Below, one piece after another: positions 5,571 to 10,707 of a DNA stretch of 64,000 nucleotides. The position numbers were made by a program, and so were the translations under genes. Under the pieces are notes generated by a model. It was not told where the DNA came from. It made no database searches and saw nothing but the letters and a program-made list of their open reading frames with translations. Source of the DNA: a virus (lineage: Duplodnaviria; Caudoviricetes); IMG/VR virus record IMGVR_UViG_3300025018_000001, one strand, 5' to 3'. The stretch's first letter is position 1; each line of letters begins with the position of its first letter.

Positions 5571-6290
5571 TTATTTTGCTGTAGCCATTACATTGTCTAC
5601 TACTTGTTCATACCCAGGCCAATTATCTACACCACTGCCTTCTAAAGCTATAAGAAAATTATTGTTTTTAATTAACATAGCATATTCTTCTTTTGATATA
5701 GTTACTGATTTTGATGCTAACCATTGCCTTAATCCAGCTAACATATAGGAAAAATCATCAAAAAATAAAACCCCGTACACATTTTCGTTATATGGATACC
5801 TTATAGACATTACAGGTAAACCTATACTAACAGCATATTGCTGACTTGAAGGGCTATCATCTATAAATAAATCAGCATCTTGCAACAAAGGGTGTTTATC
5901 ATCAACTGTATGAAGTTCATCAAAGAATATATTATGTTTATTAAGCCAAGCTTTAGTTGCTGCCTTAGATTTATATGTTCTATGAGAAGCTATTTTAACA
6001 TAGAAGCCAGAATTATGCAACATATTTGTCAGCTTACCCGCGCCTTCAAAACAACCAAACTCCTCTTGACGCATATGTACCGCGTCAATAGTCTGTTGAA
6101 AAATATGATCATCCATAAAACCCTCACCAAAATTCCAGCTATTCGTACTTCCTGGGAAGGGTATATCCGGGTTTATCTTTATAAGTTCTTCATACCAAGC
6201 AGGTGCCATAGACCATAGAATACCATCAATATCTACAACCGCTATTCTTTTATACATAGTGTCTCTTTGGAAAAAATCTTTTTTAACCAT
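5571..6290 (-). CDS. HAD-superfamily 5'(3')-deoxyribonucleotidase (NT5C-like)
   Basis: VVDIDG motif I, FIDDSP motif IV. Confidence 0.8.
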   Translation of the reverse strand: MVKKDFFQRDTMYKRIAVVDIDGILWSMAPAWYEELIKINPDIPFPGSTNSWNFGEGFMDDHIFQQTIDAVHMRQEEFGCFEGAGKLTNMLHNSGFYVKIASHRTYKSKAATKAWLNKHNIFFDELHTVDDKHPLLQDADLFIDDSPSSQQYAVSIGLPVMSIRYPYNENVYGVLFFDDFSYMLAGLRQWLASKSVTISKEEYAMLIKNNNFLIALEGSGVDNWPGYEQVVDNVMATAK

Positions 6291-6326
6291 GTTAGTAATC
6301 CTTTATTTTTCTTTTTAGTTTATATA

Positions 6327-6413
6327 CGGATAGAGAGGGATTTGAACCCTCGGTGGCTTTTATACCACACTTGTTTAGCAGACAAGCACCATAGGCCTCT
6401 CGGTCATCTATCC
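6327..6413 (-). tRNA. tRNA-Ser(GCT)
   Basis: Cloverleaf, anticodon arm CTTGT-CT GCT AA-ACAAG, long variable arm, GGTTCAAATCC T-arm. Confidence 0.95.
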
Positions 6414-6418
6414 TTAAA

Positions 6419-6604
6419 TTAGGAATTAGTAGATAGTAGTTCTGGTATAATAGTACTAGTTACTAAGCTTTTGTTTTTAACGCCAGAGTACATCTCTCTC
6501 AATAATGACATCTTAGCGTGACGTCGCTCATCAAACGTTACTTCTGATACTGGTTTCTTAAACATTCTGGCTGCCAATGATTTATAAAAGTCATATTCTT
6601 CCAT
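6419..6604 (-). CDS. Mini-protein resembling the DNA polymerase A fingers (helix N-O, motif B) segment
   Basis: DFYKSLAARMFKKPVSEVTFDERRHAKMSLLREMY aligns with PolA DLHTVNAARIYEVPYDKVTPEQRKASKAISFGLAY. Confidence 0.6.
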   Translation of the reverse strand: MEEYDFYKSLAARMFKKPVSEVTFDERRHAKMSLLREMYSGVKNKSLVTSTIIPELLSTNS

Positions 6605-6615
6605 TAATTATTACC

Positions 6616-6918
6616 TCAGTATTTAATTTTATGTGCCTTTTTGTGGCACTTACTACATATGGTTACTAAATTTTTAGCTGGCTCGTTCCATGGGTATTTC
6701 CTGGTGTACTTTAAGTGATGAAGGTGTAGCATTGTTTCTGTGTCGCCACACTCTTTACATTTCCAACCATCTCTTTCAAATATCTTAAGTCTTTTCTTTT
6801 GCCATTTTGGGTGTTGCAAAGCTAAAGCATACTGCTCTTTAGTGAGTTTGACATAGGGTTTTCCTATAACTTTGGCTTGGGCTTTCTTTTTTATTTGTTT
6901 GGTCTTTGGTTTTTTCAT
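6616..6918 (-). CDS. HNH endonuclease
   Basis: RD.W.CKECG, LHLHH, NLVTICSKCH. Confidence 0.88.
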   Translation of the reverse strand: MKKPKTKQIKKKAQAKVIGKPYVKLTKEQYALALQHPKWQKKRLKIFERDGWKCKECGDTETMLHLHHLKYTRKYPWNEPAKNLVTICSKCHKKAHKIKY

Positions 6919-6922
6919 ATAC

Positions 6923-7225
6923 TTAGTACACTCTTAAACTATTATTATAGATTTCAAATACGCCAGAGTTACCTGTTCTCAAATGTACAATTGTAAACTC
7001 ATCGCCCTCGTAAACCCATTCTTGGCCAAAGGCCGTAAAAGTTGTACAACTATTACCATCAATAACATCATTATACTCTGGTGCTACGTGTATTTTGTAG
7101 TCATCTAATTTCCAATGATAAAATTCATTAATATAAATAGAGTGAGTATTATTATACATAGTGTCACAATTAAAATATCTCATTAATTCTTCTCTAGCCG
7201 TGAAGTAGTCATAAAATAATTTCAT
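6923..7225 (-). CDS. Hypothetical protein
   Basis: ORF track, GGAGG RBS. Confidence 0.7.
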   Translation of the reverse strand: MKLFYDYFTAREELMRYFNCDTMYNNTHSIYINEFYHWKLDDYKIHVAPEYNDVIDGNSCTTFTAFGQEWVYEGDEFTIVHLRTGNSGVFEIYNNSLRVY

Positions 7226-7235
7226 ACAGACCTCC

Positions 7236-7631
7236 TTATAAAAGTTTTAAATCCCCTGTTATTTTATCAATATCTTCACTAACCCAAGGACCTATACCGA
7301 CACAAGTGTATGTGGGTACACCACCAAATTCTGTTCGACCAGCGTCTCTTATTAAAGCACAAGGAATACAAGCTTCTTTAGACCTAATGTATATATCCAT
7401 GAGAGCCTCTTCACTATCCACACTTACAACAATTTTGGTAAAGGAGCTATCCAACCAATGTTTTATAGGATCTGGTGCAAAAATAGGGTCTACATCATCA
7501 TCTCTTATTGCTTGATTTATGTCAAGCTCAGCAAGTATTACAGCTAAACTTGCATGGGCGCCTTGCGCAATCATCTTACCTTTACGCATATTTAAATCTT
7601 TACGCATAACAATAACTTGTTTTGTTTCCAT
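7236..7631 (-). CDS. pth2: Peptidyl-tRNA hydrolase, Pth2 (archaeal/eukaryotic) family
   Basis: KQVIVMRKDL.M.KGKMIAQGAHA, KIVV, IRDAGRTE, TCVGIGP: full Pth2 signature. Confidence 0.93.
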   Translation of the reverse strand: METKQVIVMRKDLNMRKGKMIAQGAHASLAVILAELDINQAIRDDDVDPIFAPDPIKHWLDSSFTKIVVSVDSEEALMDIYIRSKEACIPCALIRDAGRTEFGGVPTYTCVGIGPWVSEDIDKITGDLKLL

Positions 7632-7852
7632 TAAAAAATCTCCATACGTATTGTAGCATCAGAAACAAATGCTTCTGAGTATTTGTGACCCATTGTTCTT
7701 GTATAAACCATATCTATATCTATAGAATGTTCTGCACAACGTATGCCTGACTTCTCTTTAAAGTCTTCTAAGATTCTAGATACTTCTTTTGCTATCTCAC
7801 TTTCTGCTTCTTTTTTCATTTTAGAAAGTTCTTTTACTGTTATGTCGTACAT
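7631..7852 (-). CDS. Hypothetical protein (start revised to MYDITV so it does not overlap the tRNA)
   Basis: AAGGAG RBS immediately after the tRNA 3' end. Confidence 0.7.
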   Translation of the reverse strand: MYDITVKELSKMKKEAESEIAKEVSRILEDFKEKSGIRCAEHSIDIDMVYTRTMGHKYSEAFVSDATIRMEIF

Positions 7853-7864
7853 ATTAACTCCTTT

Positions 7865-7936
7865 TGCCTCCAGAGGGAATCGAACCCCCGTCACACTATT
7901 TTAGAGGTAGTTGTTCCACCATTGAACTATGAAGGC
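7865..7936 (-). tRNA. Amber suppressor tRNA, anticodon CUA
   Basis: GCCTTCA/TGGAGGC acceptor, GTTC/GAAC D-stem, ACTAC-CT CTA AA-ATAGT anticodon arm (C.A mismatch at 31-39), GGGGG-TTCGATT-CCCTC T-arm, A73. Confidence 0.88.
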
Positions 7937-7948
7937 TTCTAATTTAAA

Positions 7949-7982
7949 TAGAGCCGTACATAAATAGTTAGGTACGGCTCTA
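7949..7982 (-). terminator. 11-bp hairpin between the Pth2-like gene and the suppressor tRNA (weak terminator or processing signal)
   Basis: TAGAGCCGTAC-N12-GTACGGCTCTA followed by TTTAAATT. Confidence 0.55.
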
Positions 7983-7986
7983 AGTT

Positions 7987-8289
7987 TTATAATAAAGACA
8001 TGTTAGCAAAATAATCGTTACTGCCTAGGCTTGCTATAGCAGTAAGTTGATTGTTAAAATCAGGCTCTTTAAAACTTGTATAATGGATCTTACCATGTTT
8101 AAGAAGCGCTGTCAAGGATTTTAATTCATCCTCATCATTTACTTTTAAGTACACTAAAGTACCATTAGACCAATGAGTATTATTTTTTAACAAATACTCG
8201 GCTAAGGCGTGGCCAGCTTGGACCGCTTGCTGGGATTTAGATAAATCTTTTCTTGTAACTACATATAACTTATCCTGCATTTGCAACAA
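7987..8289 (-). CDS. Pth2-like protein (PTRHD1-type divergent peptidyl-tRNA hydrolase)
   Basis: LYVVTRKDL...QAVQAGHA, LVYLKV.DEDEL, F.EPD...TAIA. Confidence 0.8.
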   Translation of the reverse strand: MLQMQDKLYVVTRKDLSKSQQAVQAGHALAEYLLKNNTHWSNGTLVYLKVNDEDELKSLTALLKHGKIHYTSFKEPDFNNQLTAIASLGSNDYFANMSLL

Positions 8290-8590
8290 GCTCCTGCTTT
8301 TTAAGATTTTCCCAATGAAGGATGATAGGTTTCATAATCCTATCTACGTAGTACGTGTCAGGCTTGTTATCGTCTGCACACTTACGTTCTATTTCCTCCA
8401 TAGATCTACCTCTTATCAAACAGTAAGCTATGTGGTGGTGCCTATAATCATATCGTAGATCATCTAATCCAGCTACTACACCGTAAAGAGAACCCTTACG
8501 TTTAGATTTTTTATTTCTAATCTCTACCGCTGCTTCTTTTAATGCTACTTTTAGTTCTTTTAATGTTTCTATTTTAGTATTAATTTTCAT
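8270..8590 (-). CDS. Hypothetical basic protein (YRHHHIAYCLIRGR motif), coupled to the Pth2-like gene
   Basis: ORF track, GGAG RBS, overlaps next start. Confidence 0.75.
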   Translation of the reverse strand: MKINTKIETLKELKVALKEAAVEIRNKKSKRKGSLYGVVAGLDDLRYDYRHHHIAYCLIRGRSMEEIERKCADDNKPDTYYVDRIMKPIILHWENLKKQELVANAG

Positions 8591-8657
8591 AATTTTTTCT
8601 CCGTATTTATTTATTAGTATAGTAATAATAGTAGTAACAATTATAGTACCAATAAAT

Positions 8658-8699
8658 TTACGGTGACCTAACTACCTAGACGAATCCTGATTTTGTCAT
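8658..8699 (-). promoter_or_regulatory. Leader uORF MTKSGFV-(TAG)-VVRSP-(TAA) with internal amber codon
   Basis: AAAGGAGG-GACT-ATG ACA AAA TCA GGA TTC GTC TAG GTA GTT AGG TCA CCG TAA, followed by AU-rich hairpin 8609-8657. Confidence 0.65.
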
Positions 8700-8712
8700 A
8701 GTCCCTCCTTTG

Positions 8713-8961
8713 TTAATTGTATTTAGTTTGTACTATCTCCGCATCAGTGAAAACATGGGTATCTTTATCAGCACATACCCACAGGGGAAAACTTTCCCCA
8801 CTATTATCATGTAAGTGAAGACCACATAACTCACCATTTTTTATTTGCACCCATTTATACATGTAATGCTTCTTCCTGCGTACAGCACCTATAAAGTGGA
8901 ATACTTTGAGAACATCAAATTCACGTATCTCATTCCCTTTCTTATCTAGAACCTTCTTCAT
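8713..8961 (-). CDS. Hypothetical protein (DKKGNEIREFD, YopX-like motif)
   Basis: ORF track. Confidence 0.65.
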   Translation of the reverse strand: MKKVLDKKGNEIREFDVLKVFHFIGAVRRKKHYMYKWVQIKNGELCGLHLHDNSGESFPLWVCADKDTHVFTDAEIVQTKYN

Positions 8962-8970
8962 GCTTAGACC

Positions 8971-9153
8971 TTACTTCTCTTCTTTAGGGCCACTAGTATC
9001 AGTAGTGTATCTACTTACTCTATCGTGACAAACTATACAGTGTACAAGCCCTTCAAAATTGTCAATTATATTGGAGTCTCTATATACACCGCCGCAACCA
9101 TTTTCACAGGGTCTATCTAGTCTATCCTTTACGTTGTTAAAAGGTTTAATCAA
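8971..9153 (-). CDS. Small Cys-rich hypothetical protein
   Basis: CENGC...CIVC, AGGAG RBS. Confidence 0.6.
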   Translation of the reverse strand: MIKPFNNVKDRLDRPCENGCGGVYRDSNIIDNFEGLVHCIVCHDRVSRYTTDTSGPKEEK

Positions 9154-9179
9154 AGTAAATCTCCTAGTTGTTAAATAAA

Positions 9180-9770
9180 TTAAATAGTATCCCTATTAAG
9201 GACTACTGCCAATACACCTTTAGAATCATAAATATGAGTACTATTCAAAACAGTTTCTAAATTATAATCATATTTAGCAAATAAGTCAAGCCACCATTGC
9301 TTAGAATGTATCTGAATGTGTGTTTTGTCATTCTTGCTTACTTCTAAAACAAAATCCTCCCCTTCAATAGCTGCTACAGGTATACGTACAATAATAGTAT
9401 TAGCTACTGTAATACTACCTAATAAACTATGCAGAGCATCTTCTGGTATATGTTCTAATACATCTAAGAATAAAACAACATCAAACATTCCTGACAATAG
9501 GCCAGGGTCATAGTGGTGCAGTAAGTTAGCTAAATTATAATGCTTTTTACCAAACTCTACAGCCCAGTGACTTATATCTGTGCCTTCACAATATACATAT
9601 CTCTCAGTTAATTCATATATTAAACCGCCAGTAGCGGCACCGTAGTCTAAAACGCATTTATGTTTTAAATAAGGTAATAAATCATCAGCTAAACCAGAGA
9701 ACTTCTTCTCACGGTAGTCATCATAATTACTGATGGTACTTTTTACATAATAGTTTTTATCAAAAGGCAT
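9180..9770 (-). CDS. Class I SAM-dependent methyltransferase (start revised to MPFDK)
   Basis: VLDYGAATG, GTDIS, FDVV..LDVLEH. Confidence 0.88.
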   Translation of the reverse strand: MPFDKNYYVKSTISNYDDYREKKFSGLADDLLPYLKHKCVLDYGAATGGLIYELTERYVYCEGTDISHWAVEFGKKHYNLANLLHHYDPGLLSGMFDVVLFLDVLEHIPEDALHSLLGSITVANTIIVRIPVAAIEGEDFVLEVSKNDKTHIQIHSKQWWLDLFAKYDYNLETVLNSTHIYDSKGVLAVVLNRDTI

Positions 9771-9780
9771 AGTATAATCC

Positions 9781-10707
9781 TTAAATAAATTTAAAATGCT
9801 CACAAGGTAAAATCACTTGCTCTATCAAATCATTGTGCTCATTAAAAAAACATTTTCCTTCTTGGCATAAATTAGTAGCAAAAGCTTTTGGTGGGCTTAG
9901 CCAATGTCTAGTTATGTCTTCTATAGCGCACATTCTAAAATTTGGGTTAAACTTTCTATCTATCAATGGATTAGCTGAACAATGATACACAAAGCCGTCA
10001 GTATTTACGAACGGTTTCAAAAGGCCCATCCAACAACGGTTAGGTACTGTATATTTCTTCTGTTGAAAAAAGAAACCTGGGTATTTATTTAAAAAAGGTT
10101 TTATAGCCTCAGTTGCAGCATCAATGTCATCTATCGACAGACAGTTTGGCACCACCCTAACATAACTTGCGTTGTACTTATTATAATAGTCAGCAATTTT
10201 AATTAGCTTTTCCTCAGAAGAAAGTTCAGTCCAGACGTATGAAAATCCTAATGTTACATTACTTGGTATATCTATAGTAATATCTTCTACGTAGTCTAAA
10301 CAATTTAAACTAATTCTAAGCCACTCTAACTTGGTTAAGTTCTCTTGTGAAATATTAATTAACTTAACCCCGTTTGTTATCATACCTATATTATACCCTA
10401 AGCTAAATGAAAAGTCAATAGCTTCATTTATATATGAGTACATTGTTGGATCTCCGCCGCCGGTAAACTCTACTGTCTGTGCACCTAGGCCTTTAAAATC
10501 TTTTAATATTTGCTTACACTGTTCTAATGTGAGTGTATTACCCTCACGTGCTTTTACTGAGCACATAGTACAATTTAAGTTACAGGTATCAGTAGGGGCG
10601 AGTTGTATAGATATTGGCTTAAAGATACCATTTTGCATCTCCTGAAGCCTATCAAGATTGTGTAGTAGTTTTGTTTGGGTACTAGTATATAATTTCTCTT
10701 TACTCAT
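9781..10707 (-). CDS. Radical SAM protein with SPASM/twitch-type C-terminus
   Basis: CNLNCTMC, FTGGGDP, ITNG, C..G....VNTDG.VY.C. Confidence 0.92.
   Translation of the reverse strand: MSKEKLYTSTQTKLLHNLDRLQEMQNGIFKPISIQLAPTDTCNLNCTMCSVKAREGNTLTLEQCKQILKDFKGLGAQTVEFTGGGDPTMYSYINEAIDFSFSLGYNIGMITNGVKLINISQENLTKLEWLRISLNCLDYVEDITIDIPSNVTLGFSYVWTELSSEEKLIKIADYYNKYNASYVRVVPNCLSIDDIDAATEAIKPFLNKYPGFFFQQKKYTVPNRCWMGLLKPFVNTDGFVYHCSANPLIDRKFNPNFRMCAIEDITRHWLSPPKAFATNLCQEGKCFFNEHNDLIEQVILPCEHFKFI

Follow-up and report, generated by a model that had tools for sequence, protein, structure and literature searches.

We describe here a miniature open reading frame (ORF) interrupted by an in-frame amber codon, which lies at 8658-8699 on the minus strand of a 64,000-nucleotide (nt) stretch of viral DNA (Duplodnaviria; Caudoviricetes; IMG/VR record IMGVR_UViG_3300025018_000001), hereafter called the window, and which stands at the head of a small operon that also encodes a predicted amber-suppressor tRNA, tRNA(CUA). 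We consider it likely that this mini-ORF is a translated regulatory leader reporting UAG read-through, i.e., a read-through-dependent translational switch with an arrest-type C-terminus, and what the leader measures is most likely how well the operon's tRNA(CUA) works. The leader type itself is known; new would be a leader of the stalling type that takes as its input the read-through of a stop codon by a cis-encoded tRNA. The whole analysis is computational and comprises sequence comparison, folding, and footprint modelling.

Anatomy of the leader

The leader encodes MTKSGFV-UAG-VVRSP-UAA and directly precedes the gene for a 106-amino-acid (aa) protein, termed A1, which is followed by the gene for a 97-aa short Pth2-like protein, termed A2. 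The initial annotation of the window, made from the sequence alone, had proposed an amber-codon leader peptide heading a Pth2/amber-suppressor tRNA operon, and every element that it named is present on the minus strand at the position it gave, as read from the sequence and from the ORF, Pfam, Rfam, and tRNA calls. The parts on which the argument turns are listed here, in the order of transcription, with Shine-Dalgarno abbreviated to SD.

8704-8711, minus strand: SD of the mini-ORF, AAAGGAGG, read from the sequence; an SD-like sequence precedes nearly all homologous mini-ORFs.
8658-8699, minus strand: leader mini-ORF, MTKSGFV-UAG-VVRSP-UAA, from sequence and conservation.
8699-8697, minus strand: ATG of the mini-ORF, then six further sense codons.
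8676-8678, minus strand: in-frame amber TAG, codon 8, followed by G (UAG-G); the proposed sensing site.
8660-8658, minus strand: TAA, preceded by the post-amber codons GTA GTT AGG TCA CCG, read from the sequence.
8598-8666, minus strand: SD-sequestering hairpin, with the 5' arm at 8666-8647 and the 3' arm at 8619-8598, from RNAfold.
8599-8602, minus strand: SD of A1, GGAG, 8 nt 5' of the A1 ATG.
8270-8590, minus strand: A1, a 106-aa ORF, the gene directly behind the leader; no Pfam match.

Conservation of the leader

A strict pattern was defined as an SD, ATG, 1-10 sense codons, TAG, 1-8 codons, and then Pro-stop or Pro-Pro. Over both strands of the window it occurs once, at 8699, against 0.57 matches per window in dinucleotide shuffles, so that the single occurrence is not significant by itself; it is the position and conservation of the pattern that make it significant. 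In 39 non-redundant related loci there are 27 matches, each of them no more than 200 nt upstream of an A1 homologue, and none elsewhere in 470 kb.

With A1 as the query, three viral loci were recovered, all with an SD-led, in-frame-TAG mini-ORF just upstream and a CUA tRNA downstream, while the better conserved A2 recovered 80 viral loci, about 60 with an adjoining CUA tRNA, 51 with an upstream A1, and about 15 with A1 and A2 fused (~190 aa). The initial annotation had named the absence of a short upstream ORF (uORF) or of its in-frame TAG before homologues of the 106-aa protein as the observation that would count against it. That comparison was made, and an SD-led mini-ORF in which an in-frame amber is followed, again in frame, by Pro-Pro or Pro-stop was found in about 36 of 40 non-redundant A1 loci, across A1 proteins whose identity falls from 81% to ~30%. 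Four additional leaders were found in contigs from metagenomes and metagenome-assembled genomes (MAGs); a metagenome scan with A1 gave 3 loci, and scans of representative prokaryote genomes gave none with the A1 patterns and 6 MAG contigs with A2. The genes 5' of the leader vary, being an 82-aa ORF in the window, another ORF in locus L001, and tRNA or tRNA-like genes elsewhere, which indicates that the leader travels with A1. It is, as in the known leader class, a short SD-bearing ORF directly 5' of the gene proposed to be regulated, kept among relatives.

The general form is M-x(1-10)-amber-[I/V]-x(1-7)-[R/K]-x(0-1)-Pro-Pro, with the stop mostly directly behind Pro-Pro and otherwise 1-3 codons further on. 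At or near this stop, relatives have RGPP (L078, L080, L088, L098, L151), RAPP (L089, L136, L155), or RSPP, RDPP, RPP, or KPP. The window's own subgroup ends in Arg-Ser-Pro-stop and includes MYKSGFV-amber-VARSP-stop (L001 and L071) and MENSGFT-amber-NNRSP-stop (L073), with L078 also related. Some leaders, in L077, L078, L079, L080, and L088, contain tandem ambers or amber/Pro-Pro modules, for example MT-stop-ISGFT-stop-IRGPPYI-stop, ML-stop-KRFNGL-stop-IIRGPP-stop, and MT-stop-IQIPP-stop-IRGPP; such modules would call for two read-through events and hence give a steeper response.

Evidence for translation through the amber

In 33 of 35 leaders the CCNCC of the proline codons is in frame with TAG, its distance from the first TAG base being 12, 15, 18, 21, 24, 30, 36, or 45 nt (9-42 nt between the two). 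In both exceptions, L082 and L084, the script took the wrong ORF; by eye, the amber ends a longer upstream ORF and RGPP follows in frame. The proline codons vary at their third position (CCT, CCA, CCG, CCC). Before the amber, the peptide S-G-F-[V/T] is common to the window, L071, L073, and L078, with the synonymous changes TCA/TCT, GGA/GGT, and TTC/TTT, and in the leaders of the window's subgroup such third-position changes affect the S, G, F, and R codons. The amber itself also has a distinct context, since a purine follows it in 36 of 37 leaders, mostly within RTN codons, as against T after 9 of the 14 gene-ending TAGs of the window (Fisher p = 8e-7). In E. coli, suppression is efficient where a purine follows UAG, and UAG-U terminates strongly. 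Frame, wobble, the constraint on the pre-amber peptide, and the amber context, taken together, argue on comparative grounds that the leader is indeed translated through its amber.

A reading in which only the RNA matters has to be weighed here, namely that the element is an SD-sequestering thermosensor, or a switch operated by a protein or a small RNA, and that the ORF is a by-product of the anti-SD-like CCUCC, with no read-through of the amber. CCUCC and UCACC do resemble the 3' end of 16S rRNA and pair with the SD in many loci; CCUCC is also an anti-SD sequence, and in several relatives it is the Pro-Pro codons that form the pairing with the SD. We nevertheless assign this reading very little probability, because the TAG-CCNCC frame is kept despite the variable spacing, the mini-ORF has a conserved SD and ATG, S-G-F persists through synonymous changes, and the proline wobble includes CCA and CCG, which weaken anti-SD pairing. 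In the fused family, moreover, the anti-SD is a separate CUCC past the stop, and Pro-Pro is retained nonetheless.

The form of the leaders also recalls the bar minigenes of phage lambda. As many as 26 of 37 are AUG-NNN-UAG, formally an SD-led two-codon minigene, and they stand before Pth2-fold genes, which adds a thematic link to peptidyl-tRNA hydrolase; short peptidyl-tRNAs that drop off at the early stop or Pro-Pro could then be a substrate or signal for the Pth2-like proteins, or a load on the host Pth, with no sensing of the suppressor. Such an explanation seems quite improbable to us. Codon 2 is not fixed as it is in lambda bar and varies freely (Thr, Leu, Trp, His, Lys, Arg, Ser, Asn), so that no particular tRNA appears to be targeted; the window leader has 7 sense codons before its amber; and the conserved in-frame continuation to Pro-Pro-stop, the purine at +4, and the SD-sequestering hairpin would all be left unexplained.

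A hairpin that sequesters the SD of A1

In the window, RNAfold pairs U8666 with A8598, C8665 with G8599, 8663-8659 with 8605-8601, and 8657-8647 with 8619-8609, the last of these forming an 11-bp AU-rich stem that includes one G-U pair. The initial annotation had described an 11-bp stem ending just before the next ribosome-binding site; the pairing was recovered, and its limit was not, for the hairpin is longer and takes in the A1 SD. With the additional pairs, the Ser-Pro-stop codons (UCACCGUA) cover A1's own SD (GGAG, 8602-8599), and the 5' arm (8666-8647) is made of these codons and AUUUAUUGGUA. The predicted energy of the hairpin is -16.1 kcal/mol, with z = -3.6 relative to dinucleotide shuffles. 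An Rfam scan of 7000-9200 matched only the tRNA and no known RNA family at the leader.

Nearly all leaders fold into a long hairpin whose 5' arm comes from the Pro-Pro-stop codons, or begins 1-5 nt past the stop, and whose 3' arm is the A1 SD. The interior of the hairpin is unrelated between loci, i.e., the structure is conserved and the sequence is not. For 14 fused-family leaders aligned with MAFFT, RNAalifold yielded no consensus structure, since the arms are put out of register by indels, and the comparison was made instead with per-sequence folds, shuffles, controls, and a test of cognate against non-cognate duplexes. Relative to 90 control 5' regions from the same loci, the leaders have a median z of -2.8 (controls, -0.06), with z < -2 in 78% as against 8% (Mann-Whitney p = 5e-11), and the SD has a pairing probability >0.6 in 84% of leaders and 46% of controls (p = 1e-6). 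Duplexes between 5' arms and SD regions average -14.0 kcal/mol for cognate and -7.9 kcal/mol for non-cognate pairs, and 30 of the 36 leaders have their cognate partner among the three best of 36. Individual loci point the same way: L071 has a compensatory change from G-U to A-U in the stem, and L073 keeps the lower stem and has an entirely different, yet complementary, upper stem. The two arms thus covary. As judged by folding and by comparison between loci, the leader shares with the known class a downstream SD that is sequestered and a 5' arm that would lie beneath the proposed stalled ribosome.

The same leader could in principle have another, or even the opposite, output, acting on transcription or the fate of the RNA (masking of a Rho site, protection from decay, transcription into the tRNA gene) or providing positive feedback on the tRNA or repression of A1. 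TnaC-type stalling at Pro-stop governs Rho termination (PMC8450073), and synthetic TAG-bearing tna/trp leaders act through a transcription output (PMC6412442); in addition, 36 of 39 loci have the tRNA downstream and similarly oriented, and the window has a terminator-like hairpin between A2 and the tRNA. Set against this, the covarying partner of the stall site is A1's own SD, which points to control of translation initiation, and the leader hairpin has no U-tract behind it. We regard such an output as unlikely.

Geometry of the ribosome footprint

Ribosomes were modelled by masking -12 to +15 around the P site and refolding each leader. Over 34 leaders, the SD has a median unpaired probability of 0.01 both in the free RNA and when the ribosome stands at the amber, and this rises to 0.53 once the ribosome stands on Pro-Pro (Wilcoxon p = 5e-9). 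For the window, when only the RNA ahead of the ribosome is considered, a ribosome with UAG in its A site leaves the hairpin -15 to -16 kcal/mol, and one with UAA there leaves it -1 to -3 kcal/mol. The earlier suggestion that read-through moves the ribosome 18 nt onto the hairpin agrees with this modelling, in which a ribosome must pass the amber before the SD is exposed.

Proposed mechanism

In the switch that we favor, ribosomes would start at the strong leader SD and reach the UAG at codon 8, where release factor 1 (RF1) would compete with the operon's tRNA(CUA). Should the release factor win, the ribosome would stop at UAG with its footprint ending just short of the -16 kcal/mol hairpin, and A1 would stay untranslated, as would the overlapping and probably coupled A2. 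Should tRNA(CUA) win, the ribosome would advance five codons and halt at the slow-terminating Pro-UAA, where it would cover the 5' arm, so that the hairpin could not form, the A1 SD would be free, a 30S subunit could load, and A1 and A2 would be made. Even without long stalling, every read-through event would briefly unfold the hairpin. The output would be a two-part Pth2-like factor dependent on the activity of the neighbouring suppressor tRNA. As a guess, A1 and A2 might act on tRNA(CUA) itself, hydrolysing or deacylating it as a brake, or might clear peptidyl-tRNA derived from read-through, in which case the purpose would be one of peptidyl-tRNA recycling.

That a ribosome might halt at the end of the leader has precedents. 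RAPP and RGPP are versatile, EF-P-resistant arrest motifs that are robust in several contexts (PMC12992588; PMC10951233), TnaC stalls at Pro-UGA (PMC8450073), and a C-terminal Pro slows release (PMC7246954, citing Hayes 2002 and Pierson 2016).

Several points weigh against the proposed switch. The window leader ends in R-S-P-stop and lacks the RAPP/RGPP core (R-A/G-P-P), so that stalling in the window would depend on the general slowness of Pro-stop release, and this slowness varies between species (PMC7246954). As CCUCC doubles as an anti-SD, the constraint on the peptide and that on the RNA are not fully separable. When the whole RNA of the window is simulated, the SD is unpaired with a probability of 0.42 for a ribosome at the amber and 0.40 for one at Pro, a poor discrimination that arises because the sequence behind the ribosome can pair with the SD; the contrast in the window is clear only when the RNA behind the ribosome is omitted. 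A ribosome at UAG may also already fray the two outermost pairs (8666, 8665). Within the loop of the leader hairpin there is a -10-like TATAAT (8645-8640), and transcripts begun there would escape control; a promoter scan of 6000-10000 returned 14 promoter-like matches, not above the 17.4 expected by chance. Lastly, the nearest non-CUA tRNAs (Thr, Trp, Arg, Asn) are only 65-69% identical to tRNA(CUA), which allows no amino-acid assignment.

A wider proposal, which we hold more tentatively and put a little short of even, is a self-referential "private code" circuit, in which the suppressor tRNA of a standard-code phage is read by the leader and so licenses A1 and A2, which in turn act on the tRNA or on the products of read-through.

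The genes of the operon

The remaining features of the region are listed below; the start of A2 overlaps the end of A1 by 11 nt.

8715-8713, minus strand: TAA of an 82-aa ORF, the upstream neighbour; the SD of the mini-ORF starts one base past it.
7987-8280, minus strand: A2, a 97-aa Pth2-like ORF; PF01981 at 24.8 bits, cut-off 23; phrog_3668.
7951-7980, minus strand: 9-bp GC-rich hairpin, GAGCCGUAC / GUACGGCUC, with a 12-nt loop, then UAUUUAAAUU; read from the sequence.
7865-7936, minus strand: tRNA(CUA), called by ARAGORN; Rfam RF00005, 60 bits.
7631-7852, minus strand: 73-aa ORF, with its SD directly behind the 3' end of the tRNA; a homologue lies at the same place in L001.
7236-7631, minus strand: canonical Pth2, 131 aa; PF01981, E = 1.7e-33, 115.7 bits.

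A1 is modelled by AlphaFold2 as all-helical (predicted local distance difference test score, 90.8) and has a conserved motif, YRHxHIAYCLxRGRxxEQIE. It had no match in Pfam, PHROG, a PDB profile search, or Atlas, and Foldseek of the model against the PDB returned only non-specific helical bundles with E >1. The match of A2 to PF01981 spans profile positions 2-81 of 115, and its profile aligns to archaeal Pth2 structures, with Gln in place of the canonical GK lysine, which we take to be catalytic after the Sulfolobus enzyme, and with the Asp (EPD) kept. By sequence, A2 appears to be a divergent Pth2-fold protein. The fusion of A1 to A2 in about 15 phages suggests that the two work together. Unfused A1 proteins nearly all end in ..[C/R]-x-x-Ala; the A1/A2 overlap lies at 8270-8289 in the window, and phages among L093-L121 have one fused ORF.

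A same-strand CUA tRNA is found in 36 of 39 A1 loci, and two of the three exceptions are truncated contigs. In the window, tRNA(CUA) has the properties of an amber suppressor: a cloverleaf scoring above the gathering threshold (60 bits), a 7-nt anticodon loop, CUCUAAA, with U33, the CUA anticodon, and a purine at 37, together with a discriminator A and no encoded CCA. The hairpin at 7980-7951 may be a leaky terminator or a processing site ahead of the tRNA; a terminator scan did not call it, because its loop exceeds 8 nt. On the other side of the tRNA, the AAAGGAG SD of the 73-aa ORF starts right after the discriminator base (7853-7865), so that excision of the tRNA and translation of this ORF would compete for the same RNA end.

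The canonical Pth2 of the window aligns to PDB 2zv3 over residues 4-131 (E = 7.7e-24). No CUA tRNA stands beside canonical Pth2 in any of 62 viral loci, so that the tie to the tRNA is particular to A2, and canonical Pth2 would be a lineage-specific addition in the window and L001. The Pth2/suppressor-tRNA operon of the initial annotation therefore needs amending: A1, A2, and tRNA(CUA) are conserved partners, and canonical Pth2 is not. Just downstream of the operon lie an HNH endonuclease ORF (PF01844) at 6616-6918 and a tRNA-Ser(GCU) gene at 6327-6413, and L001 keeps the same order (Pth2, a 100-aa ORF, HNH, tRNA-Ser).

In loci that lack A1, about 20 A2 genes open with an in-frame ATG-NNN-TAG-RTT of their own, and the gate may thus have moved into the gene itself in these A2-only relatives. 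A2-like domains occur in Lak, XacN1, RAS14, and Aeromonas phages. In Xanthomonas phage XacN1 (ORF364; L161, ~940-1800) and Stenotrophomonas phage RAS14 (L160, ~941-1800), the A2-like part is the C-terminus of a ~270-aa protein whose N-terminal part has HD-domain-like motifs (WHDIGKP, HFPNHA, AHDM). The similarity between these two proteins runs 5' of the annotated starts up to an SD-ATG-AAG-TAG-ACC, so that ATG-AAG-TAG is a predicted amber-gated start missed by the annotations. XacN1 has two CUA tRNAs, for which its authors found no target (PMC5852040).

Phages with the fused A1-A2 have, in the 85-93 nt directly 5' of the leader SD, a tRNA-like gene (L093, 2550-2637; L097, ~615-704; L103, 2542-2634; L118, ~2545-2633; also L094, L101, L109, L113-L117, and L121). 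Its acceptor, D, and T arms are intact and its 3' end is ..GCCA or CACCA, with the anticodon arm replaced or extended by a long tetraloop hairpin (UUCG, GAAA, GCAA). The L103 copy matches the Rfam tRNA model at 50.7 bits over 93 nt, and ARAGORN without introns misses most copies. This gene could encode a tRNA with an intron, or else an RNA that lacks an anticodon and serves in processing or as a scaffold. Separately, at L151 1055-1131, downstream of a cassette with the leader MKMNILNTENFP-stop-GRGPP.., ARAGORN calls a tRNA of undetermined type with the four-base anticodon 'tcta', which suggests an 8-nt anticodon loop.

The phage and its genetic code

The window has a GC content of 34%, with nearly every gene on the minus strand, and encodes a ribonucleotide reductase, a family-A DNA polymerase, a DnaB-type helicase, Hsp70, a ClpB-like ATPase, and ten tRNAs. 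Its closest relative is a 228-kb viral contig, and its DNA is present in aquifer and cold-spring metagenomes, so that the window is a piece of a very large groundwater phage. Neither blastn with 3 kb of the window nor tblastn with A1 found a match among cultured phages. Contigs from four aquifer runs covering 7800-9000 are identical to the window wherever they match, and thus do not inform on natural variants.

This huge groundwater phage uses the standard genetic code. Genome-wide TAG recoding, as in the class of recoded phages, was considered and rejected within the window, where treating TAG as a sense codon leaves the longest ORFs at the same length and 15 of 91 ORFs end in TAG. No further amber-gated ORF was found in the 64 kb. 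As to the base after the stop, T follows 9 of 14 TAGs (e.g., 1993, 12311, 29017, 58875) and 21 of 64 TAAs of the window, which are small numbers; it may be that the TAG stops of the phage's genes are maintained in a context of strong termination, resistant to its own suppressor tRNA.

Comparison with known systems

The closest parallels in architecture are the leaders ermCL/ermBL, cat, cmlA, SecM-secA, and MifM-yidC2, which are likewise SD-led short ORFs 5' of the regulated gene. As in the erm, cat, SecM, and MifM systems, the stall site would lie on the 5' arm and the next gene's SD on the 3' arm, and in the footprint model only a ribosome parked there frees the SD. The input would be different, being UAG read-through instead of a drug, secretion, or insertion, with early termination as the off state, and unlike in these systems the operon itself carries the gene for the decoder, tRNA(CUA).

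The C-termini of the relatives' leaders are like those of the RAPP/RGPP arrest peptides (ApdA, ApdP, ApcA, and the Streptomyces RGPP uORFs; PMC7897499, PMC10951233, PMC12992588). The original members of that class are small secretory or membrane proteins encoded upstream of protein-localisation genes, whereas the leaders have 8-17 residues with no signal or membrane segment and no link to Sec/YidC genes, and they would reach the arrest motif only after stop-codon read-through; the read-through peptide of the window has 13 residues and no hydrophobic segment. TnaC (Pro24-UGA) similarly ends in Pro-stop, where slow release holds the ribosome (PMC8450073). Unlike TnaC, which controls Rho-dependent transcription termination, the present leader would need no ligand and would control access to an SD.

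With prfB, the gene of release factor 2 (RF2), the leader shares an early in-frame stop that would turn termination efficiency into a decision on expression, with the deciding factor encoded in the same unit. In prfB, however, the competing event is a +1 frameshift, and the leader has neither the slippery CUU-U nor an internal SD stimulator: its zero frame continues past TAG to Pro-stop, with no long ORF in the other frames, and its stop lies in a separate leader (inside the gene in the A2-only relatives).

As regards suppressor tRNAs, code-15 phages (Lak, crAss-like) and the standard-code XacN1 also encode a tRNA(CUA). The window differs from the former in having no genome-wide TAG recoding, and, unlike the CUA tRNAs of XacN1, to which no target had been assigned, its tRNA would have in the leader a specific built-in target, as would be the ATG-AAG-TAG start of the XacN1 ORF364/RAS14 homologue. 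No published description of such a leader was found in the full-text literature; a survey of jumbo phages notes PTH2 and makes no mention of suppressor tRNAs (PMC7824862).

Implications

If the proposed switch is correct, an element of ~110 nt would join stop-codon competition (as in prfB), arrest motifs (as in RAPP/TnaC), and SD-sequestering hairpins (as in erm), and would be the first natural leader-peptide sensor that weighs a release factor against a suppressor tRNA. Synthetic tna/trp leaders with an inserted TAG already exist (PMC6412442), and the amber leader would be their natural counterpart, as well as a compact natural device with which synthetic biology could report or control amber suppression.

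For the phages themselves, suppressor tRNAs are common among large, non-recoding members, and a conserved leader whose completion requires amber read-through offers a concrete, testable target. The ATG-NNN-UAG-RUU gate at the Pth2-like genes of cultured jumbo phages would then be the first defined target for orphan suppressor tRNAs, and A1 and the Pth2-fold domain would be a pair functionally tied to tRNA(CUA). Should the more tentative private-code circuit also prove true, the phage could switch on, measure, and restrain stop-codon read-through during infection.

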